A stretch of 60,918 nucleotides of DNA, filler included, from Globobulimina sp. (Eukaryota), in NCBI GenBank assembly GCA_003354225.1. It is 11 parts of 11 records of this genome, joined end to end, with 100 filler letters (N's around TTAATTAATTAA, not from the genome) between each part and the next. Parts side by side here need not be neighbours in the genome. Positions count along the whole stretch, not along the records: positions 38,849 to 44,291 come from PIVH01000569.1; 10 more parts are not named here. One strand, given 5' to 3'. A model generated the notes under the pieces. The model made no database searches, had not been told where the DNA came from, and saw only the letters and a program-made list of their open reading frames with translations. Of the stretch, positions 33,391-49,834 are shown piece after piece; the first letter of the stretch is position 1; each line of letters opens with the position of its first letter. Made by a program: the position numbers and the translations under genes.

Positions 33391-33470
33391 ATTATTTCGG
33401 GAAATAATCCTAATTATTGGCTACTATTCGGTTAACAGTTTATTACAAGAGAGATTTATGACAGACCGGA
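33391..33470 (-). repeat. 80-bp direct repeat, terminal copy (B2)
   Basis: Identical to 36197-36276. Contains minus-strand AATAAA (33444-33439) and ends in the palindrome attatttc-gg-gaaataat. Confidence 0.97.
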
Positions 33471-36196: not shown

Positions 36197-36276
36197 ATTA
36201 TTTCGGGAAATAATCCTAATTATTGGCTACTATTCGGTTAACAGTTTATTACAAGAGAGATTTATGACAGACCGGA
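36197..36276 (-). repeat. 80-bp direct repeat, internal copy (B1), followed by a GC-rich putative A2 segment
   Basis: Starts 6 nt after the pol stop and is identical to 33391-33470. Region 36196-36050 is GC-rich with small hairpins (gcttgaa/ttcaagc). Confidence 0.95.
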
Positions 36277-36282
36277 AGTAAT

Positions 36283-38712
36283 TTAGCTAGCGTCCGAAAA
36301 ATCCAGTCTTAAAGCAATCATATCATTTTTCAATTTCCCATTTGAAAAAATTGACTGTGTATAAGCTCCTGCTATTACAGCTTCCCTCCCAGGTGAAAAA
36401 ATCCGAATATCTTTTACAAATGCTGCTGGCAATCGATTAGGCATCACCAATGGCCACACTGGATTTGACGGCCATTCAGCCATTACTACAGTGCCTTGTG
36501 CTTTACAACTTTGTAAAAGTCTCACTGCTTTAAGTAATAAATATGGAGGTGGTACGATCCAATTGTTATATCCAGCCCAGTTAAAACATAAAGCATTAAC
36601 ACCTTTTGAACCTTTTTCCCCGTTTAGTGAATTGAAATTCGTACACATCGCGTTGTCCGCGTCGGCAAATCTATCAAAATTGTGTGGACCAAAGGCTTCA
36701 TCCAACTCCTTAAATACTGCTGGATGAATCCTCCAGTCATCCTTGTCTACTGCTCTACTGTAACTGTCCGCTTTTTTATTTTCTTCCCGCGGAATCCATG
36801 TTAACCTTAATATAATTCTATGTTTGACACAAACCTGCAGCAACTGCCTAGTCAGCTCATTTAATTCTTCTTTCATACTTCCTTTTTTCACAATGTATGT
36901 GATAGCTTGATTATCAGTAAACCAAGTGACCGTTTTTCCCGCTAATATATCTGCCCAGCTGTCCACCGACAACTGGACTATCTTCAACTCCCGCCAAGTA
37001 GAACTCTTTTTCTTTTGATCGTCTGTAAAATTTCTTATAAACTTTATATTTGTCTTATCAATATAGGCCCCCGCTGCCACATTACTGGCATCAGAATAAG
37101 CTGTGACTGTCGCCGGTGGAATAGGAACTAACATTTTTGATATCTCAGGCTTTATCAAGACTCTTATCCAAAAAGCTATCTCTTCCCTTACTGTATCTGA
37201 CAGCTTGTAATAAAAATCCCACTGATTTGCTCCCTCTAAACAACTCACTGTGTATCGGCACAAGGCCTTTGTTGCTATAGTGGCTATGTCGCCTATGACT
37301 AATCGCATGCTAACAATATTTCCCGCCAACCTGGCCACTTGTCTCGGAGAGGCACGCTTTTTACTAATCAGATTTCGCGCCAAATTTAGTACTTTTTGCC
37401 TACGGCTCTCGGGGGTGGAAAGTATCCTTTTGTCCAGGTCGATGACTAAACCTAACCATGACAGCTGTTTTGTTGGTTCCCATACTGACTTTTTACAATT
37501 TATACAAAACCCTGCTTCCTGCAAGTCATTTTTTACCCTTTTGGAATGCTGTTTTGCTCGGTCAAAATTGGGCGCCAAACCCAACCCATCATCCAAATAA
37601 AGAATCAACTGAATTCCCTCGGCTCGCCACCTACGCACTAAGGGACGTAAAAATTTCGTAAAAACAAAAGGCCCGGTGTTAATACCAAAACATAATACAT
37701 TGAACTGAAACCATTCTCTCTGGCCATTAAAAGTCCAGCTAAAACCCAAGTATCTTACACTATCTGGATGAATTTCTATATGGTTATAAGCTGCTTCTAA
37801 ATCAAACGAAAAACAAAATTCCGCCGTCGTCAAGTACTCCTCGGCTACAGAATAGTCTTCCAATTTAAATTTTTGCTTATAAACAAACGGATTTATAGTT
37901 GAAGCATCTAGAATTAGTCTTTTCTTCCCTGATGCTTGCACTGCCACTGATAAGGGGTTGACTACTAAAGGGGCTACTGCCACCCTTTCTATTAGTCCAT
38001 TTTTCAACAATTTCAGAATTGCCCCTTCTACAAAATTTGGCTCATCTTTTGCCGAACGATTATTATTAAAGAACGCCCTGCTGGGCAACGTCTTGAATGG
38101 TATTCTATAACCATGCTGTACAATATTAGAAGACCAACCGGCCTTATCAATGGTAGCCCAAAAATCAATGGCTCGTCTTAGATTCCCTCTAATGGGCATA
38201 AGTGGGACGTCGCTCCACTTATCGTCGTCACATAAACCATCATATAGTTTAGTAATAGCAAAAACATGATAATTTGTTTGCAATTTAAACTTACGTCCAA
38301 CTCCTTGCAACCATCGCCGATCGTCTTTCGGAACTTGAGCCACACCTGACGCCTTTGTGAACTCCTTCAACATATTGGTCTTGAACGATTCCATAATCTC
38401 CAAAAAGTCTGTCGGCACACTAGCACGACTTTCTTCCAATGATTGAGTGGTTTTCTTTTTCTTTGGAGACGCTTCTGGGCTTGAGTCGTTTGAACTGGGC
38501 AAGAGATTGCGTTTTCTTGGGATTTTGTAACCAGCCAGGAATTCTGTCCTCTTCGGTGGTTGAGGCTTGCTTGTCTTCTGGGCTTCTTTGATAGGAGTAA
38601 TTTGCGATGTGACCAAAGTCCTTTGCCTCCTTTTCGTTGCCAACACATTGCGAAGCGTGACACCTGGAGAGAATTTCACCGTCTGTTTCCGACCTCGACC
38701 TCGACCTGACAT
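36283..38712 (-). CDS. DIRS-type Pol: RT + RNase H + methyltransferase-like domain
   Basis: RT motifs KKRLILD, FDLEAAYNHI, LCFG, YLDD. RNase H motifs YSDAS, SSTWREL, FTDNQ, WIPREENKKADSYSR. MT motifs DW..FGPH.FDRFA..NALCFNW..WIVPPP..WPS..WP. Confidence 0.96.
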   Translation of the reverse strand: MSGRGRGRKQTVKFSPGVTLRNVLATKRRQRTLVTSQITPIKEAQKTSKPQPPKRTEFLAGYKIPRKRNLLPSSNDSSPEASPKKKKTTQSLEESRASVPTDFLEIMESFKTNMLKEFTKASGVAQVPKDDRRWLQGVGRKFKLQTNYHVFAITKLYDGLCDDDKWSDVPLMPIRGNLRRAIDFWATIDKAGWSSNIVQHGYRIPFKTLPSRAFFNNNRSAKDEPNFVEGAILKLLKNGLIERVAVAPLVVNPLSVAVQASGKKRLILDASTINPFVYKQKFKLEDYSVAEEYLTTAEFCFSFDLEAAYNHIEIHPDSVRYLGFSWTFNGQREWFQFNVLCFGINTGPFVFTKFLRPLVRRWRAEGIQLILYLDDGLGLAPNFDRAKQHSKRVKNDLQEAGFCINCKKSVWEPTKQLSWLGLVIDLDKRILSTPESRRQKVLNLARNLISKKRASPRQVARLAGNIVSMRLVIGDIATIATKALCRYTVSCLEGANQWDFYYKLSDTVREEIAFWIRVLIKPEISKMLVPIPPATVTAYSDASNVAAGAYIDKTNIKFIRNFTDDQKKKSSTWRELKIVQLSVDSWADILAGKTVTWFTDNQAITYIVKKGSMKEELNELTRQLLQVCVKHRIILRLTWIPREENKKADSYSRAVDKDDWRIHPAVFKELDEAFGPHNFDRFADADNAMCTNFNSLNGEKGSKGVNALCFNWAGYNNWIVPPPYLLLKAVRLLQSCKAQGTVVMAEWPSNPVWPLVMPNRLPAAFVKDIRIFSPGREAVIAGAYTQSIFSNGKLKNDMIALRLDFSDAS

Positions 38713-39201
38713 CCTTGCAAAAACAATTTTTCTCGATAAAAATAATACNNNNNNNNNNNNNNNNNNNNNNNNNNNNNNNNNNNNNNNNNNNNTTAATTAA
38801 TTAANNNNNNNNNNNNNNNNNNNNNNNNNNNNNNNNNNNNNNNNNNNNATTTGCTAATTAATGTTGCAAGTTCTTCCTGACCCTTTTTGTTTTTTTGGTA
38901 AAATGCCTTGAGAATAAAAGTGATATGGCAATAACAACTTGTTACTATGTTGCAAATATGAATCCCAAAATATGCGGTTTTTCATGCACAACTGTGTGAA
39001 AGGAATGCATTTAAGTCAGAATCGTCGAGAAGTTGGTGGATAAAGTATCGTAGAATTGCAAAATTGGATTCTTACTTCATACGGAGCAACTTAATAATTC
39101 AACTTCTCAACGCATAAACTTCTGAACCTCTCAACCTCTCAAGCTTTCTTTCAATAAATCAACATGAAAAAACAGATTGCAAAGTCAGTAATGCTACGTA
39201 G

Positions 39202-40502
39202 TCACAACACAGTCTTCATTCCATCCAAACCAATCCACAAATCATTAATTCTTTGCTCATCACTCATTTTATAAAAATCTTTATGTTGTATCCTATAATA
39301 AATATTATACCGAATATCCATTGAATAATTAATACCTCCTTTATGACATAAAAACGGATGACATAATATAATGTCACCAACATCAACATTGCATTGTTTA
39401 TATTCAATGTCTTTCCATTTAGATCTGCCTTGTGGCCAATGGTTCTTTTCCCAAAATCTATCATAACCATCTCGTATTAATATCTTTTGAATTTCATAGT
39501 GAGTGCCTGGCCAAACAGTAAACTGTCCACAAAACGGCATCTTTTGTTGACTTATACCGCAGTCAAATGTTTATCTTTTTTGCCATTTGATACACGCATA
39601 TCGTAAATATTTGATTGTATTGAATGTATCAACTGTCAAAAGCCAAAACTGTGAGGCATTGCATACCTTAATGCTATGCCTAACAATACATTAAATTGCG
39701 GCAAAACTTTATTCTTCAAGCCATCAACATGCCAATTAACCTCATCCTCTTTGTACTCGCTTTTATTCGCAGGCGTTAACTGTGGATTATGTGGATATCG
39801 TAACGCCGGTTGGCAGCGAGTATTCTTTGCCGGAGCACTGCCAAACAAATCAGCACATAATGAATATGCGTCACTTTGCGTGAATAAATTCATCATTTCT
39901 GCACTTCGGACAAACTCATTGTTGAACAGCGGGATTCCAGTGTGGGGAGCAATATTTTCCAAATGAATGCCTTGTCCCAATGAATAGTTTATTTTGCGTA
40001 GCGATTTTTCAATCAAGTTGTTTGATGCACCATTTTTAATCACCACACAACCAATGTCTCTGAATTCGATTTTATTTTCTTTTGTTAAACTTCTGCCTGT
40101 TTGGTTTGGCGGTAAATAGTCATTGGACAATAACTGTGATCCACGGTTAATGATATCAACTCTGTGCATGCGTCCACCACAACTGCCTCTACCTCTGCCC
40201 ATTCCTCTGCCGCGTCCTCTGTCTCTTCCTCTGCCCCTTCGAATTCCACGTCCTCTTTGTCGATGGTGATTATTATGCGTGTGTTGATTGTGATTGATGT
40301 TATTTCCATGCATGTACATGTTGCCATTATTGTATCCATTAAATTGAGTGTCATGAAATATATTATTATTGTTGGTTATTGCACAGTTTCCATACATATT
40401 TCCTTGACTGTAAGGATCGACTTGCATTTGATTGTCTTGCTTGCTGTCTTGATGATATCCTCCCACATAATTGTGTGTCGAACCTGTGTGTTCTGTAGAC
40501 AT
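39202..40502 (-). CDS. PhyH-like Fe(II)/2OG dioxygenase with N/H/RG-rich N-terminus, 2 exons
   Basis: WHVDG, FTVWPGTH, GDIILCHPFLCH.G..N...RY. Phase-2 intron 39666-39551. Confidence 0.82.
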
Positions 40503-41168
40503 TCTACTTTCAAGTCAGTAGAAAACTAAATGTAGGTTATCTTGCATAGCAACTGGGTAAAATTCTGCTGTCTAACGAGTCCGACTCCGACCACTAAGGT
40601 TAATAACTAATACAGTCACTTGAAAAACAATAAATAAATTACAATTAGAAAAAATTAAAGACAAAATTAGCGAAAAAAGATAAAGGTATTGATTATTTTT
40701 GTTTTTTTTTGTTTTTTGTATTAATGATACATTTGATACAACAAACACAAGCCATTTATTGCTAATGATATCCTTTAATCCATTTCCCATTCAACATATT
40801 ATCGATATTTGTACCAGTAATTATCAGCAAATTAAATGTTGATTGTGAACGATTTCATTTGTGTTTTTCATATGTCAACAAAACAATCGTTAGATTATTT
40901 TATCAGAAGAAATGCGGTCAATTTATAATTTTATTTGCATTTCAAACACGTTGTGCATATTAAAAGTACATACTATATACATACGTGAAACATCACCAAT
41001 CGGACAAAAAATATCTCATAAAAACGGGTACAAAATAAAGTTAATATTTGATACAAGTTTAAATATATTATCTACAATAAATATTCTATATATTTGTAGA
41101 AAGTAGAAACGAAATATTATCCTAGCACACAAACCTTGCGCCAAATATACTTAACTAAATAATGACGA

Positions 41169-41840
41169 TTATATTCTATAAATGCCTTTTGATATTCCCT
41201 GGTATGCATCATTAATAATTTGTATTTTTCTGATCGCATTCCTTTGTCCTAACACTTTACATCGTTCTTTTACTAAATGTATTTGAATTCCATTCCAGCG
41301 AATAAATTTCTTGCCACATAAATCACAGCGAAATTTATATTCCTTCTTATAATGTATATCTGTTATATGTGCTGTACATTCATTCTCATCTGCAAATATT
41401 TTTGAATTATCACAATCTGGAAAACTGCACACGAATCCATGTGAAAAATGCAATGAAAATATATGTTTCTTCAAATGAAATCCCGATCCAAATGATGTAT
41501 TACATTGTTCAATGTTACATTTATTCATTTTTTCATCACATATTACTTGACCATTTTCTATCATTTTATTCAATATGAGATTTGCTTCAGGTTTTGCCAT
41601 TGATGGCTTTACATATTTTTTAATGTCATGCATGTTAATTCTTGGTTTCTTTTTTGTATTACCACCGTTACTAATTGTTTTCTTTGCAATTGTTCTGACT
41701 GTATACGATTTATGTTCGTCATCTTCAGCTGCAACGTTACCATCTGTTTCTTCACTTAATTTGCTCCGTTTTGATAATCTTATTGCGAATATAACAAATT
41801 TATTGATTTCATTTTGTGCTAGTGATCCTTTGTTGGCCAT
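41169..41840 (-). CDS. C2H2 zinc finger protein
   Basis: CNIEQC..HLKKHIFSLH, CSFPDC..HITDIH and CDLCGKKF..H. Confidence 0.85.
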   Translation of the reverse strand: MANKGSLAQNEINKFVIFAIRLSKRSKLSEETDGNVAAEDDEHKSYTVRTIAKKTISNGGNTKKKPRINMHDIKKYVKPSMAKPEANLILNKMIENGQVICDEKMNKCNIEQCNTSFGSGFHLKKHIFSLHFSHGFVCSFPDCDNSKIFADENECTAHITDIHYKKEYKFRCDLCGKKFIRWNGIQIHLVKERCKVLGQRNAIRKIQIINDAYQGISKGIYRI

Positions 41841-41918
41841 TTTTGATGTTATTTGGAGACTTTGGAGGTGTGAAGTGATGGAAGGGATTGGAATGTGTTG
41901 AATTGAGTGAAGTAGTAG

Positions 41919-42697
41919 TTAACTGACGGATTATTTGATGCAGAGGCAAATAACACGTATTATATACAATTTCCTTCCAAACAAGCTCATTCTGTCAGAA
42001 ATAATGAATCAAAACAGGATAATAAATATGGTACGTGTGGGTTATCTGCATAACAAGTCGCACAAACTAAGATATGTGACACATATTTAATAGCAGCAAA
42101 TGTTAATGTTAATGTTTCATTATTTCTTTCCGCCAACCAATAACTTGAATGTGTCTTTCCTTTCACACTTCCATTAAATAAATATTCCATATAATAATAA
42201 TTGCTGTTGTTATAAACAGGAACCGACGAATGAACCACTGTGCCATTTGGTGCTGTATACGTTTTTGATCCAGATTTACCACCTATTATTTTATTTTTTT
42301 TTGTCAAATTAAAAAGTATAATAATTATATGTCATACCTTGACCTCCTGTTAAATCAAATAATTTTGTAGTATTCCAATCAATTTTATTATCATCAACAT
42401 CTGTATGTTATTGATTCACACAAAGTTATGTTCATTGATTCACACTGCAATGTATACACATTACACATAGCAAATGATAGATGCTCAGATTACAGTGTTG
42501 ATGGATATGGATTGGATAATAAATGGAACAAAATATGTGATACAGTTAATACAAGCAATGATAAGCTTGGTGATACCCGTTGTCATATGGTTAGAAAACC
42601 AGTCTCAAAAATACGGTTTATTGTAAAGAAAAGTAAAGATTTGAATACGGTTTATTGTCTTTGTTTGAAGGAAATTGATATTTATGTTGCAAATTAG
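41919..42697 (+). pseudogene. Galactose-binding/discoidin-like domain gene with an inverted internal segment (42055-42424)
   Basis: Middle exons lie on the minus strand (42400-42338 and 42282-42055) and the last exon on the plus strand (42471-42697). All junctions are phase 1 after re-inversion. Confidence 0.65.
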
Positions 42698-42970
42698 TCA
42701 ACAACAGATTCAAAAACGATAAAATATTTTAAAATGCAAACCATGGTTACAGAGAATAATTTTCTTAACTTGTGTTCGATCAAACATTTTCTTCTTGATT
42801 GGTAATAAAATTAAAAAGAATAAGGACAGTAAGCAATCATTGTGATAACAAAACATAACACAAAGCTACAGCACCATATTGAGCAGCATGTGTGTTTCCT
42901 GCGAGTAACGACGACATTTGATCTTAATAGCGGTTTTGTATCTGTCTAAAAAAAAACTTTAATACTATTA

Positions 42971-43603
42971 ATGTCAAAAGTCACACTCACACACTACCGA
43001 ACATGCATATTTATGCTAATTTTGACCACAATATTCTCATTACTGGTATTCAATGCTAGATTCCAATCGCACATCGTATTAATATCATATACAAAAGAGC
43101 ATCAAATTTCAAATGAGAAATCATATGCATTGAAATCAACACTGCATCCATATAACGCAGCAACTTATGTATTTAGAAACAAATCAGAAATGAGCAAATT
43201 ACCACATGTCGATGTCAAAGATATATATCCATATTTGGATGAAAATATGAAATCAAATAATCTGAGAATCAGTGGCATGTCATATGTTTTTGCAGATAGG
43301 ATTAATAAAATATTATTTTGTTTAATTCCAAAGACTTCATGTTCAATGTTTAAATTGTTAGTACATTTTATCCATAATCACAATCCACAGCAGCTCAACG
43401 TTTGGGAAACTAAGTATAGGCCGGAAAGAATACATAAACATGTTGACACAGCTTTGTTTATCACACCCCATCAAAGTATAAATCAAAGTGTATCCAACAC
43501 ATATTTTGCGATTTTGCCTGACACGAAATTTTTGGCGATTTCGTACTCAGAGTTGAGTGAACAGTTACTGCTGAATTTTTGCACTGATATACCTGTTGTA
43601 TGA
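42971..43603 (+). pseudogene. Carbohydrate sulfotransferase (Sulfotransfer_2-like), truncated where repetitive DNA begins
   Basis: TM anchor and the 5'-PSB motif FCLIPKTSCSMFK; no 3'-PB motif; the ORF runs into an inverted-repeat element near 43500. Confidence 0.65.
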
Positions 43604-43651
43604 ACGTACCAACATGCAAAAATTCAGCGGTAACGGTTCACTCAACTCTGA
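43547..43651. repeat. 37-bp inverted repeat (2 mismatches, 31-nt spacer)
   Basis: tcagagttgagtgaacagttactgctgaatttttgca (43547-43583) versus 43615-43651. Confidence 0.92.
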
Positions 43652-43771
43652 ATAATTTACGGTAAAATAGGCGTTGGTGGCGCGTTAAACCATTTGCCGA
43701 ATTTTCGGTCACCCACACGAAAATTTTTAGTGTTATGTCTGGCGACCTAAATACTGACCTGCTTTTTCGAT

Positions 43772-44028
43772 ACATCCATTCCCTCGATAATTAAAGAACC
43801 AAGCACCAGCAAATGCATCAATGATACTATAAAATTTTCGTTTTTTCGATTACCAACACATCTCCACATCCATTTTCTCGATCCTGAAACAACCAAAGCA
43901 TCAGCAAAAGCATCAATAATACTATAAAATTTTCGTTTTTTCGATTACCAACATATCTCCACATCCATTTCCTTGATCCTGAAACAACCAAGCACCAGCA
44001 AAAGCATAAATAATAATATAAAAATTTA
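43772..44028. repeat. Tandem repeat, about 94-95 bp, about 2.7 copies
   Basis: aacca(a)agca.cagcaaa.gcat units at 43797, 43891 and 43986; looser ~50-bp T-rich repeats follow to about 44200. Confidence 0.9.
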
Positions 44029-44391
44029 TGTTACCGCAGCAATTTTTTGTTCCTTTCTTCTGATTCTTCTTTAATTGTCCGATAAAATCAATATTTTTGA
44101 TGTTTCGCTTTTGATTCTTCTTTACAGTTCAATAAATTCAATATATTCGGTGTTTTCTTTCCTATTATTCTATATTGTTTACTAAATTTGGTGTTTTCTT
44201 TTCGTAAAAAATTAAATTTTATTATTTTTAATAAAAAATTTTCAATACCGTACCTCTAAACATTAAACCATTCTAATAAAACGCTCACATGNNNNNNNNN
44301 NNNNNNNNNNNNNNNNNNNNNNNNNNNNNNNNNNNTTAATTAATTAANNNNNNNNNNNNNNNNNNNNNNNNNNNNNNNNNNNNNNNNNNNN

Positions 44392-44521: not shown

Positions 44522-45040
44522 TTCTTAATTGAAACGAACGGAGAGAGAGAGAGCATAACAGCAGACATGAGTAGTAATTGGAGCAAACGCTTCAATATGA
44601 AAGTACTTGTATGTAATAAAATTTGTTTTCTGTCTCAAATTCTGCACCACGAGCTTACGCTCACCAAAAACGAACTATCGACAAACATGACCTTTTTAAC
44701 TGGCCAAGTGCTATTATAGCATGTTAAAATTGGTTGTGTATATCTTACAACACGCGGATAACTTTTGTTAACGTATGAAGCTGTTGATATGCTACCTAGT
44801 GGCAATATTTTTGACAACACATGTCATGTACTATAACTGTACGACGTTAAAGTGTTGAAGGTACCGAACGGATTTAAAACCGTTACTACGAAGCGCGTGT
44901 TATTGAAAATAATGTTGCTATGCTGACTATCAATGTTGCTATGTTGCTATGCTGACTACTAAACGATTAACAACGTTTCCACATATTAAAATTAAAATTA
45001 AAGTGGTCAAAATAAACAAATTACAATATGTATACAGGAT

Positions 45041-46573
45041 ATGATTGGCGAGCAACGAAAACAAACAAAATTACTTAGTGATGCAATCTTAGACATTCAC
45101 AAAAACACAAAAACAGAAAAATCAGATTATGCACAACTAATATATGAAAAAAGCATAACAGAAAAATTCGAGGTGCACTTTCCCGCCGAAACCGCGGATG
45201 TCTTTGAATATTTCACCCGAATCGACCTTTATAAGGCCAAAAATCCGAATGTAATGAATAAACATTTGTTCCAGAATGTGATCAAATCATTACCGCGATC
45301 GAGGTTGGCGGAATGGACAAATTACCGCAATGCGCAGCTATCCGATAAAATTAGTATGCATTTGCACTTTGATGTATTGCCCGAAGCAGAGCGGAATGAA
45401 TATCGTGCCATGTATTTGCTTCGTGTGTCAAACTTTGATGTATATAAAAATTGGATTTTGTCCATATTCACCATAACCGCCGACCATACCACATTCGATT
45501 CGCTATTCCAAAATATTAACATTCGATACCATGAGGACCCCTCGGCGTTGTTCCGTCGGCTCCAACAATATTTCGCCCAAATTACTAATATAATCAAATT
45601 ATTGAATCGCACAACGTATCGCGACTCCAATTATAAGGCAGCTGACCTTACTCCGCGCGAAAAATTCAAAATATTGTATCGGATCTATGTGACTAATAAT
45701 TGGGATAAAAATAATAATAATTACGGCAAACATAATGAGAAAATGCGCATAAATATTTTGAAGGGATTGAAGGAGGATGGATATGAATATGATGTCATCG
45801 TAGCCCTCATCAAAAAACAAGATACCAAAATCATACCACTTGAAATACGCGATGATAAAATCAAAAAATACCATTGGCAAAAATATCCATATAATCACAA
45901 TGAATCCTCCATATTCCTCATCAGCCGTAATCCAGCCACATCGAAACGAAAACGGTATTATGAGACCGATGATGGCAGTCCGCCGATAAAAAAGCAACGC
46001 TTTACATCGAAACCACAGTGCAACAACGGATTAAATTGCAGCCGCTACATTGAAAGTGGTCGCTGTACATTCTTCCATCCACCAAACGAAATGCGTAGTC
46101 TTTACCTACAACGCAAGAAATATTTATCCAATCAAACAAAAACGTACACAACGGATAAATATAAAAACAGAAATAGAACCAAACCGGAACAGAAACGCGA
46201 GTTTAAACCGGATTGCAAATATGGAACAGAATGTAGAATGTACCAAGAAGGGCGCTGCAAATTTTATCATAAATATAAAGAAATGAAATGTGGCAAATGT
46301 GGCAAATCCGGCCACGCGAAATTTAAATGCTATGTCAAATCCATGGAAGCCAATGATAAAAGTGATAAAATCCCGCATTATGATCCGAAAAACACTGTGA
46401 ATGCAACCAAATCATTGCAGGAGTTGCAAAAATACCGTACTAATAATAAATTGTCGGACGCCCAGAACCAAAAACTGCTCACATTGGTTCATGACATCAC
46501 CGGACAGCGTCCCCGGCCTCGTACGAAGTGGAGAAAATGGAGAGGAGGCAAAGGCAGAGCCCGACGCGGATAA
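45041..46573 (+). CDS. Gag with two CCCH fingers and one CCHC knuckle
   Basis: CNNGLNC-x8-C-x3-H, CKYGTEC-x7-C-x3-H and CGKCGKSGHAKFKC. Confidence 0.85.
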   Translation: MIGEQRKQTKLLSDAILDIHKNTKTEKSDYAQLIYEKSITEKFEVHFPAETADVFEYFTRIDLYKAKNPNVMNKHLFQNVIKSLPRSRLAEWTNYRNAQLSDKISMHLHFDVLPEAERNEYRAMYLLRVSNFDVYKNWILSIFTITADHTTFDSLFQNINIRYHEDPSALFRRLQQYFAQITNIIKLLNRTTYRDSNYKAADLTPREKFKILYRIYVTNNWDKNNNNYGKHNEKMRINILKGLKEDGYEYDVIVALIKKQDTKIIPLEIRDDKIKKYHWQKYPYNHNESSIFLISRNPATSKRKRYYETDDGSPPIKKQRFTSKPQCNNGLNCSRYIESGRCTFFHPPNEMRSLYLQRKKYLSNQTKTYTTDKYKNRNRTKPEQKREFKPDCKYGTECRMYQEGRCKFYHKYKEMKCGKCGKSGHAKFKCYVKSMEANDKSDKIPHYDPKNTVNATKSLQELQKYRTNNKLSDAQNQKLLTLVHDITGQRPRPRTKWRKWRGGKGRARRG

Positions 46574-49500
46574 AAACCAATTATTTCCCCTCGAACTCGC
46601 GACTCCCAACAAAACTAATATGCAATCTCCTCGCCGCGACGCCAAAATCAATCTAAATCCACATTTGATTGGTTGCGGTGCTGCGATACCAACCACCACG
46701 ATCTCCGAAAGCAATATGAGTAATAAAATAGATTATTTTGAGGCAAATACCGCATTGTTAATACCTGGTGCCTATAAATTCAAATCTAATGACGTTGGCA
46801 CTCAATCGGACAATGATATTGATATGGAATTCGATGAAAAGTCCGATACCGACGATGTCAATGCATTTCTCGACAGTGATTTCATTGTCTCCGATGACGA
46901 TGATTATAAAATTAATATGGAGGATACCCGAATGCCAGAACCATATGATTTAACTCCATCAATTTCGAATATATTTATGACCCATCCCGCATTCAATACG
47001 AATAATAAATTGTATCAGGAAGCGCTTGATTATCATTTTAAGCGCAACCCAATTGATCGCCTATTAATAAATGATGATATTATTGATGTGGATAATATCC
47101 ATTTGCCAGTCCGCGAGGTTACAGTCAACGTCGCATCCTTTGATATTGGCAAAATCCCCGCATTCGCCGATACCGGCTCAAAAATACAAGCCATTGGGCC
47201 CAAAATCGCAGCAAAATATGCAAAATATCTCCAAAAATCACGTAAAGGCAAAACCTTACAGACCGGCAATGGCATACTCACAACGCATCGATATTTGCCC
47301 TTAATTATCAAAGCAAAGAGGAAACAAAAACATAAGACAAAGAATGAAAAGGATAAATATAAATACCTATATTCAAAATTTTGGGTCATTGAGGATTTAC
47401 CGAAGCAGCATGATTGGTTGATTGGTGATAATATGTTGAATGAATTAGGCTATAATTTGACGCATAAGTATGAAATATATGAGCACAAACCGCAACCACT
47501 CGACCTGCTATCCGAGGACCTCGATGACATCGCATGTATGCGGTATCCCAATATAAATCCGCCCAAAATAGATCTGAATAAGGTACACGTACAAAATAAA
47601 GAATTGGAGCAATTTATAAGAAATACCCTGCTCAAATACCAAGAGGTCATAGCCAAAGATGAATGGGATAGTGGCATGATACCAGACGCTGAATTTGTTA
47701 TAAATTTCATTGAAGGCGATGATCCGAGGAAGGATGGCTTTGTCTGTACGGAATATCCAATGCGCCACACATTACGTACGGAGGCTACGCGCCAAATCAA
47801 AGGCATGGTACAGAAAAAAGTCATATCGCGCTGTACCTCCAAGTATGTCTCGCCGATATTCCTAATACCGAAGAAAACGGGCGACGTACGGATCGTATTT
47901 GATTATCGTATCTTGAATATGATAACGGAGAAATTATTCCATCCCATACCTCGCAGAGACCGCCTATTGCATCGATTCAAAGATAAAAAATTCATCACAT
48001 CATTGGATATGAAAGGTGGATACTGGCATATCCCAATAAAGCCAGAACACCGCAAACGGACTGCATTTGTATTTGATGGTGATGTATATTGTTGGAATGT
48101 GATGCCATTTGGCCCCAAAAACGCTCCGATGTATTTTCAGGCCGTAATGCAAAATATATTTGATGGTCTCGACTATGTCTTGGTGTACATCGACGACATA
48201 TCCATTGTGTCCGAGACGCTCGCCGAACATAAGCAGCATTTGAAGGAGGTTTTTGATCGTATTCAGGCGCATGGCATCAAACTCCGACTCGATAAATGTA
48301 TATGGGGCGCCACGGAAACTGAATATTTAGGATTTGTGGTGAATAAAATTGGTGTATATACCAAGGATAGCTATAAAAAGAAGGTATTGGCCGTACCTGA
48401 GCCTACCAATAAGAAGGAGCTATTGCGCTTCCTCGGCCTCGTCCAGTTTCTCGGTGATTTCATACCGCAGCTAGGCGCCAATACCGCTCATTTGTCCACA
48501 TTGCTACATAAAGATAAGGCGCAATCATTCACATTTACGCCTCACCAACGCTCCATATTCGACAATATCAAATCAAAAATTCAAAATATTGATTATTTGG
48601 CACATCCAGACCCACGTAAACCATTCCATGTATTTACGGATGCATCGATATATGGCATTGGCGGGATGTTGGCCCAAAAGGATGATAATGGCAAATTCCA
48701 TCCAGTCGCATATTGCTCGAAAACGTTTAATCAAACACAACAGAATTGGCACGTTTCGGAGCAGGAAATCTTCGCAGTGATCCATTGTGTTGAAAAATGG
48801 CAATATTTGCTTAATTATGCGAAATTTACGATACATACCGACCACAGCAACTTAGAGAATCTATTTAATAAAGCACGAGATTTCCGCGCCGGTAAATTGT
48901 ATCGATGGGCTGTGCGATTACAGGATTTCCATTTTGACTGCAAATTTATTAAAGGAAAGGATAACAAGGCAGCGGATTACCTAAGTCGCGACGCATTGGA
49001 CCTACCATCAAATATAAAAATTCGCCAATTCTATCGCGCCAAACCAAAATCAGCCGACATCGATGGTATTAATATCATAGCATCGTACCATCAATGCTTA
49101 ATCCGCGAAATATTATCATTGGACACAAATTGTAATTATTTTTGTCCATTCCAACCAACGCCGACACCAAAAACGTATCCAAATCAACCGACGCCCATTG
49201 GCGAATCGCTTAATTGCATCATCCCACTCAAACCATTGGATACTACGCCGTACGCCGCGCCGTTTTATCCCAATTCATTCATCGATGATGTATCGAGCGC
49301 CACCACCGACGACGACGGACCTCAACGTCACAAAGCACCGCCACCTGAGCTCGCCGACTATGATATTACCACTGAGTCCGATGACGACGCCGCATATTTA
49401 CCACCATATGCCACTGTACCGTCAGACTCTGAACATCAGAAAATACCCACTCGCTCATCACGTCGCCATAATAAAAATAAAAATCCATCGGATTACATTG

Positions 49501-49834
49501 ATCATACACCATTGGTACCTACGATTGGCACCGTTTACGATGCAAAATTATTGAAAGAATCCGTGGAATTGCGACAAAAACGTGCTCTGAATAGGTGCAA
49601 ACAAAAAGAAATGAATCAAAGAATAATAAATAAAAAAGCCTCATACCCGGTGTACAATAAACAGATATTTTATCCATTTTATAGTACACCAATCCAGGAT
49701 TATTATACTTCGATAATAAATCCGAACAACGCAGAAACCCAGAAATTGATCGTCGAGAAGCAAACCGCAGACTGCTGTACAGTAGTGTTCCCGATAAGAG
49801 GTACGCATATTAGTACTAATATTATATATTATAC
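46401..49834 (+). CDS. Gypsy Pol (protease, RT, RNase H), partial
   Basis: FADTGS (protease); DYRILN, SLDMKGGYWHI, MPFG, YIDDI (RT); TDAS, TDHSNL, N.AADYLSR (RNase H). Lies in the +1 frame relative to gag. Confidence 0.96.

Follow-up and report, generated by a model that had tools for sequence, protein, structure and literature searches.

A recently rearranged, inactive copy of a conserved galactose-binding-domain gene in the foraminiferan Globobulimina sp.

The locus at positions 41919-42697 of the window, the whole stretch of 60,918 nucleotides under analysis, is a dead and recently rearranged copy of a conserved foraminiferan gene for a galactose-binding-domain protein. As evidenced by spliced contigs from three separate studies that show the gene in its normal order, a central block is inverted in the genomic sequence, and at a further junction the 5' end of the gene is cut off. 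The explanation that we favor, and to which we assign an even chance, is a one-off accident in the cell, in which a normal gene was broken and its ends were joined anew.

Results

Sequence data and genomic context

The locus lies on contig G000:C569 (PIVH01000569.1, window positions 38849-44291), one of the 11 short contigs that make up the window, with N-run spacers between them. The parent Globobulimina sp. assembly of 70 Mb in 48,370 contigs is incomplete and fragmented, and the sample was polymorphic. Contigs from four (X1, X2, X5 and X6) of nine associated sequencing runs were aligned to positions 40900-43700. Those of X1 are DNA-like, retaining introns and spacers, and this run probably constitutes the source data of the assembly. 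Runs X2, X5 and X6 belong to three separate studies; none is recorded as RNA, and the fact that GT-AG introns are spliced out of their contigs is our sole ground for reading them as such. The sequence of 41800-42900 has a single occurrence in the assembly, besides a 75% match to its 3' flank. Elsewhere in the window, a reverse-transcriptase-like frame (36283-38748, minus strand), which by eye we take to be of the DIRS type, shares its contig with an identical 80-nt direct repeat (33391-33470 and 36197-36276), and a Ty3/gypsy-like gag-pol pair is found at 45002-49834.

The gene and its relatives

The closest protein located is P0001, an orthologue assigned by its source to the foraminiferan Bolivina argentea. 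In a tblastn alignment it matches the window in four pieces, with residues 73-109 on the plus strand, 103-131 and 131-213 on the minus strand and 215-281 again on the plus strand, in agreement with the first-pass annotation, which had placed the two halves of the domain on opposite strands. P0001 is colinear with the gene in mRNA order, and the frame reconstructed from the RNA-like contigs aligns with it as one domain, as had been proposed, with a score of 791, identity in 150 of 207 residues and no gap at the site of inversion. This frame contains neither a stop codon nor a frameshift, and the event is therefore recent. Two paralogues in the same assembly, L002 (G000:C4855) and L003 (G000:C21790), encode the domain on a single strand and in a single frame and are likewise colinear. 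In L002 it is preceded by a hydrophobic leader, in L003 by a zinc-ribbon-bearing N-terminus, and an apparent acceptor in L003 matches the place of exon 2 of the present gene.

A Pfam search with the two domain halves of the window returned no family except for one match at E 0.079, and L002 matched PF22633 with E 2.6e-04, below the cut-off. A model of P0001 built from a 4-sequence alignment had a mean pLDDT of 57.6, with residues 1-112 unmodelled. In Foldseek it gave 175 matches at E<=0.001, the best of them to the CBM32 structure 4a42 (E 9.9e-07), and matched CBM32, F5/8 and APC10 sandwiches, showing the beta-sandwich that marks the galactose-binding domain-like fold. The gene product is predicted to be a galactose-binding-domain protein with a sandwich of the CBM32/F5-8/APC10 type that is conserved in foraminifera.

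The coding region also shows variation among the sources. The last exon contains a perfect direct repeat of 15 nt (42610-42624 and 42644-42658). It is present in X2, X6 is without the 15 nt and P0001 without the five residues; it is a real, in-frame templated insertion, variable among alleles or species. The contigs of X2 and X6 share a 6-nt insertion at 42097-42098, inside a short tandem unit, that is found neither in the window nor in X5. A stretch of 33 nt (42170-42202) is common to another transcript in X2, X5 and X6, which is a further paralogue with no match in the assembly.

Structure of the inversion

X2, X5 and X6 each provide one contig that traces the plus strand from 41920 to 42029, continues on the minus strand from 42401 to 42336, skips an intron of 55 nt, runs on along the minus strand to 42038 and resumes on the plus strand at 42473, with two bases ambiguous. 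The joints are thus 42029>42401 and 42038>42473, the latter being equal to 42040 -> 42471 if the two ambiguous bases are allowed for. Each of the three differs allelically from the window, X2 by 7 substitutions and a 6-nt insertion over ~790 nt, and the RNA contigs therefore derive from other alleles or close species.

We listed all clean flips whose left end falls at 42031-42061 and whose right end falls at 42401-42481. Eight of these reproduce the RNA, and three of the eight are one event in three notations, a flip of 42040-42470 with a 2-base TG/CA overlap. No other RNA-reproducing flip dispenses with an additional intron or has an overlap, and this one yields a single GT-AG intron 1 of 79 nt and an uninterrupted last exon. 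We regard it as the best-fitting description of the true event. The remaining five flips, from 42040 to 42402, 42406, 42424, 42429 or 42451, have no overlap and divide the intron sequence into 11+68, 15+64, 33+46, 38+41 and 60+19 nt, respectively. They require a break exactly at the exon end. The versions with introns of 33+46 or 38+41 nt could still apply but are less economical; they leave the 2-base match unexplained, invoke introns below the lengths proven by RNA (55 and 70 nt) and insert an intron at a site that is intron-free in L002 and L003.

With the flip of 42040-42470, the gene reads as follows. What is left of an upstream coding exon, its 3' part (41920-42030, plus strand), identified from the RNA-like contigs and the alignment to P0001 residues 73-109, is followed by the first 9 nt of intron 1 with its GT donor (42031-42039, plus strand), up to junction J1 at 42039/42040, or 42037/42038 with the overlap, as placed by the RNA joints and the flip enumeration. 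The inverted block of 431 bp (42040-42470, minus strand; 42038-42472 including the 2-bp TG/CA overlap) is defined by the enumeration and by X1 contigs bridging both of its junctions. On parsimony, it would begin in mRNA order with the 3' 70 nt of intron 1 (42401-42470, minus strand), ending in the genomic sequence at junction J2 (42470/42471). Spliced contigs delimit exon 2 of 63 nt (42338-42400, minus strand), and the GT-AG intron 2 of 55 nt (42283-42337, minus strand) is the one skipped in X2, X5 and X6. The RNA-like contigs and the P0001 alignment (residues 131-213) place the 5' part of the last exon at 42040-42282 on the minus strand; its 3' part with the stop codon (42471-42697, plus strand) is covered by the RNA-like contigs, with a 3' UTR reaching to at least 42847.

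The two inversion junctions show exact reciprocity on the exon side, where zero bases were lost or gained relative to the RNA. No eliminated spacer is needed at the exon breakpoint, where the flip involves no deletion. A long inverted repeat flanking the block was not found, and the breakpoints are also free of k-mer-length inverted repeats. Random flips show an overlap of two or more bases in 17.6% of cases, and the overlaps of 1-2 bases observed here are at chance level.

The first-pass annotation had recognized the exon 42400-42338, the 55-nt GT-AG intron 42337-42283 and the donor at 42031, all of which the spliced contigs confirm. It had set the breakpoints, however, by a 6-bp inverted pair, CATAAC (42049-42054, plus strand) and GTTATG (42425-42430), and proposed a flip of 42055-42424. 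The pair exists, but the RNA runs through it to 42040, so that 42040-42054 with the left member is coding sequence inside the inverted block, and such matches also turn up in 32% of shuffles (n = 5000) and, for real window pairs, in 43% (2051 of 4752), which leaves a chance match in place of a pointer mechanism. The proposed flip is not among the eight that reproduce the RNA, drops 15 nt present there and aligns to P0001 with a 5-residue gap and a score of 760, as compared to 791 for the RNA-based frame. In place of its 48-nt intron the RNA supports, in the best flip, the single 79-nt intron 1 with the donor at 42031, and its third intron of 46 nt is probably a mirage, the far part of intron 1 read backwards, which looked real because the reverse complement happens to offer a GT and an AG. 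The near-duplication of 18-19 bp that was said to flank the right breakpoint (42404-42421 and 42427-42445) was recovered in a repeat search as an intronic tandem repeat at 42404-42445 on the plus strand, but it lies within one intron, 25 nt from the best right breakpoint.

A third junction at position 41920

At J0 (41919-41921), the 5' flank of a zinc-finger gene is fused mid-codon to the galactose-binding-domain gene with an overlap of one base, as evidenced by contigs of X1, X2, X5 and X6. The contigs of X2, X5 and X6 extend upstream of 41920 by 176-255 letters that are absent from the window, and the last 30 of these translate like residues ~63-71 of P0001. The genomic sequence upstream of 41920 bears no likeness to residues 1-75 (scores 16-23). 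An X1 contig (41150-41920, depth 7.9) tracks the window up to 41920 and then continues in different letters, so that both sides of 41920 have another partner at that same base, the RNA upstream and X1 downstream. A splice acceptor at 41920 would require a base change relative to all three RNA contigs and an intron of >3 kb that holds other genes, and because X1 branches at this very base, we favor a junction. In the incomplete assembly, no match was found for the first ~72 codons of the gene (P0001 residues 1-71) and the upstream RNA letters, nor for the alternative X1 continuation or the flank of a close paralogue. J0 had been missed before, and it explains the earlier failure to find a start codon for the upstream exon; as the 5' end is missing too, undoing the inversion would not restore a working gene.

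The neighboring C2H2 zinc-finger reading frame occupies 41169-41918 on the minus strand (Pfam zf-C2H2, E 2.5e-05), and its transcript starts near J0, with an X2 contig beginning at 41913. X1 holds two haplotypes of the 5' end of this gene (41837-41920), differing by 9 substitutions and a 10-nt gap in ~85 bases, and in one X2 contig positions 41786-41828 are replaced. On the other side of the locus, a sulfotransferase-like frame (42950-43515, plus strand; PF03567, E 4e-04) is followed by the RNA-like X5 and X6 contigs as far as 43512-43515, where they diverge and no GT donor is found. A repeat starts at this point (region 43516-44291) that has an X1 depth of 297 and matches on 11 other contigs, with 40-nt inverted arms (43544-43583/43615-43654) and ~94-nt tandem units from 43772. 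The RNA's continuation of the sulfotransferase has no match in the incomplete assembly, and the break may be due to an insertion, to a long intron of unusual kind or to yet another junction, the fourth on this contig.

DNA support for the junctions

Separately built X1 contigs bridge J1 (41988-42176, depth 3.6) and J2 (42156-42880, depth 6.55) with 0 differences. For J0 a depth of ~3.2 is inferred, and no bridging piece is present among the X1 pieces listed. These contigs make misassembly unlikely, but X1, as the probable source of the assembly, does not provide independent support. The un-inverted joint is absent from the X1 pieces listed, in contigs that drop rare forms, and 504 of 648 base-depth units over 41934-42027 fall outside those pieces, a weak hint of a second copy. 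In scans of metagenomes for independent carriers, none of 97 candidates qualified, and among 416 there were five distant relatives and no close one.

Isolation of the event in the sequence scanned

The event is isolated in every set scanned. No strand switch was found in 24 myosin contigs (12 multi-piece, 30 kb), in 103 kinesin contigs (22 multi-piece, 71 kb) or in 137 kinase rows, with six two-row contigs inspected by eye and 132 of 885 candidates scored, a set biased to intact genes. A background tblastn of 647 open frames against 111 contigs (100 sampled plus the 11 of the window, 710 kb) reached 78 kb of sequence, distributed over 49 contigs, and revealed no strand switch besides this locus, which was recovered with both paralogue queries (2/2). 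The same 710 kb in 111 contigs contained one near-perfect inverted repeat, a 48-nt palindrome. This isolation counts against genome-wide scrambling and also shows that retained fold-backs from multiple displacement amplification (MDA) are uncommon. Further genes with inverted exon blocks, for which a scan had been suggested, did not turn up in these sets, whereas the unscrambled mRNA that was likewise to be sought is present in the spliced contigs of three of the four runs.

The 48-nt palindrome is perfect and lies at L066:6779-6826 (G000:C228), 23 nt from a contig end. In the myosin set, G000:C6212:214-2493 matches head residues 232-679 and then, weakly and on the same strand, residues 34-222, possibly a tandem degenerate myosin head.

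Discussion

Origin of the rearrangement

Small complex structural variants that combine deletion and inversion arise by non-homologous or microhomology-mediated end joining. For the present locus, we infer that the joins have a cellular origin and that end joining produced them. The DNA would have broken at three places within 550 bp, with the promoter and the first ~72 codons lost or separated at 41920, a 120-bp piece keeping its direction and the 431-bp piece being reinserted backwards; the rearranged copy would be dead, and intact copies would supply the mRNA. Such a copy could have been inherited as an allele or have arisen somatically in a polyploid nucleus. This is consistent with the mRNA-like contigs in normal order in three of four runs and with the colinearity of the orthologue, L002 and L003. 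As in inversions made by end joining, the junctions are reciprocal, on the exon side, their overlaps fall within 0-3 bases and no inverted repeat flanks the block. Exact exon-side reciprocity would be predicted by breaking and rejoining, but not by two independent polymerase jumps, near-perfect fold-backs are rare in the assembly, and overlaps of 1-2 bases stay below the 5-8 nt usual in MDA chimeras according to PMC4595205. On the other hand, the junctions are known from the single DNA-like run X1, the probable assembly source, in shallow contigs (3.6 and 6.55, with an inferred ~3.2 for J0), a cluster of three junctions within 550 bp also resembles multi-level MDA chimeras, and about 23% of MDA junctions are reported to have overlaps of 0-1 base (PMC1855051). 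A chimera made in the laboratory is accordingly a serious, if somewhat less probable, contender: three early template switches during phi29 amplification, or a ligation before it, would have produced the molecule if the DNA was amplified at all, and low coverage would have admitted it to the assembly. The occurrence in one DNA-like run at low depth, the different X1 continuation at 41920 (depth 7.9), the unexplained cover of the first exon and the undecayed reading frame all suit such an origin, 85% of MDA chimeras are inversions (PMC1855051), and 2- and 3-level chimeras exist, with a commonest jump of 250-300 nt (PMC4595205). Yet the exon breakpoint is exactly reciprocal, all three joins have overlaps of 1-2 bases as against 2-21, mostly 5-8 and peaking at 6 nt, in MDA chimeras (PMC4595205), the X1 pieces listed contain no un-inverted joint, and strand switches as well as fold-backs are rare in the assembly. 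Polymerase jumping would fit less well because take-off and landing are independent and because MDA inversions carry an intervening deletion (PMC1855051). The inversion within one gene that the first-pass annotation had described thus stands, and of the causes it had offered, amplification chimera and inactivating mutation lead, whereas the ciliate-like option gained no positive support.

That option, a germline form unscrambled in development as in spirotrich ciliates, is very improbable. A clean reciprocal inversion with a 2-bp overlap and a correctly ordered mRNA would be in keeping with it, a pointer in ciliates may consist of no more than TA (PMC10901763), and genome remodelling and a division into germline and somatic nuclei are known from some foraminifera (PMC11606643, PMC10936158). 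Coding segments are indeed re-oriented with respect to the mRNA, but pointer repeats above chance level do not mark the junctions, as the 6-bp pair lies off the junction and the true overlaps are two bases, at most a minimal candidate pointer, and, at J0, one. The gene lacks its 5' end too, the block is not bordered by an eliminated spacer at the exon breakpoint, the X1 pieces listed hold no unscrambled joint, and orthologue and paralogues are colinear. In place of the many genes affected in ciliates, with 4.2-28.6% scrambled segments in four species (PMC10901763), no further case emerged in 127 myosin and kinesin contigs (34 multi-piece, 101 kb), 137 kinase rows and 78 kb of paralogue-covered sequence. 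An assembler that walked a repeat the wrong way is less credible still; the assembly is fragmented into its 48,370 contigs and the sample polymorphic, but the breakpoints hold no inverted repeat of k-mer length and X1 contigs bridge J1 and J2 with 0 differences. Trans-splicing, by which the inverted DNA would be a working gene whose sense and antisense transcripts are joined, has next to nothing to commend it. The first join does have a plus-strand GT donor and a minus-strand AG acceptor, and an AG precedes 42471, but the minus strand beyond 42040 reads CA and not GT, leaving the second join donorless, the join at 41920 is mid-codon, and none of the three RNA contigs represents the window allele.

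Significance and relation to known systems

As it stands, one broken gene copy is of little consequence. The case does call for caution with this assembly, whose contigs can be rearranged, and shows that a short intron may pass for a normal one when inverted. Foraminifera have polyploid nuclei, undergo Zerfall and in some groups possess germline and somatic nuclei (PMC11606643, PMC10936158), and the contig could sample a nucleus with developmental DNA cutting and rejoining, be it germline scrambling or polyploid somatic shuffling around Zerfall, although we consider this very improbable. In that event, such truncating joins and clean inversions would be expected repeatedly at fixed sites, and the locus would be the first sequence-level evidence for ciliate-like rearrangement in Rhizaria. 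Junctions that proved reproducible and stage-specific would be important in view of the germline and soma differences and the dramatic genome cycles of foraminifera. The string 'scrambl' does not occur in the main text of PMC10936158, and a literature search, with subscription journals mostly outside its reach, returned no reports of gene scrambling in foraminifera.

The locus is a new instance of a known phenomenon, a small complex rearrangement or a chimera. In its protein, the P0001 model shares the sandwich of the galactose-binding domain-like fold (CBM32, F5/8 type C, APC10/DOC, IFT25), but with only 8-18% identity to the solved structures. With the scrambled genes of spirotrichs, built from MDS, IES and pointers (PMC10901763), it has in common an inverted coding segment and a colinear mRNA, whereas here there is no IES at the exon breakpoint, no pointer above chance, the 5' end is lost, the case is isolated and no somatic DNA form is seen. 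Low depth, more than one join per molecule and inverted joins spaced by a few hundred bases are shared with phi29 chimeras, in which, however, a deletion and overlaps of 5-8 nt are typical, as opposed to exact exon reciprocity and two bases here. Although known here from a single DNA source, the locus shares with small complex variants made by end joining the clustering of breaks, overlaps of 0-2 bases, a reciprocal inversion and the inactivation of a gene.
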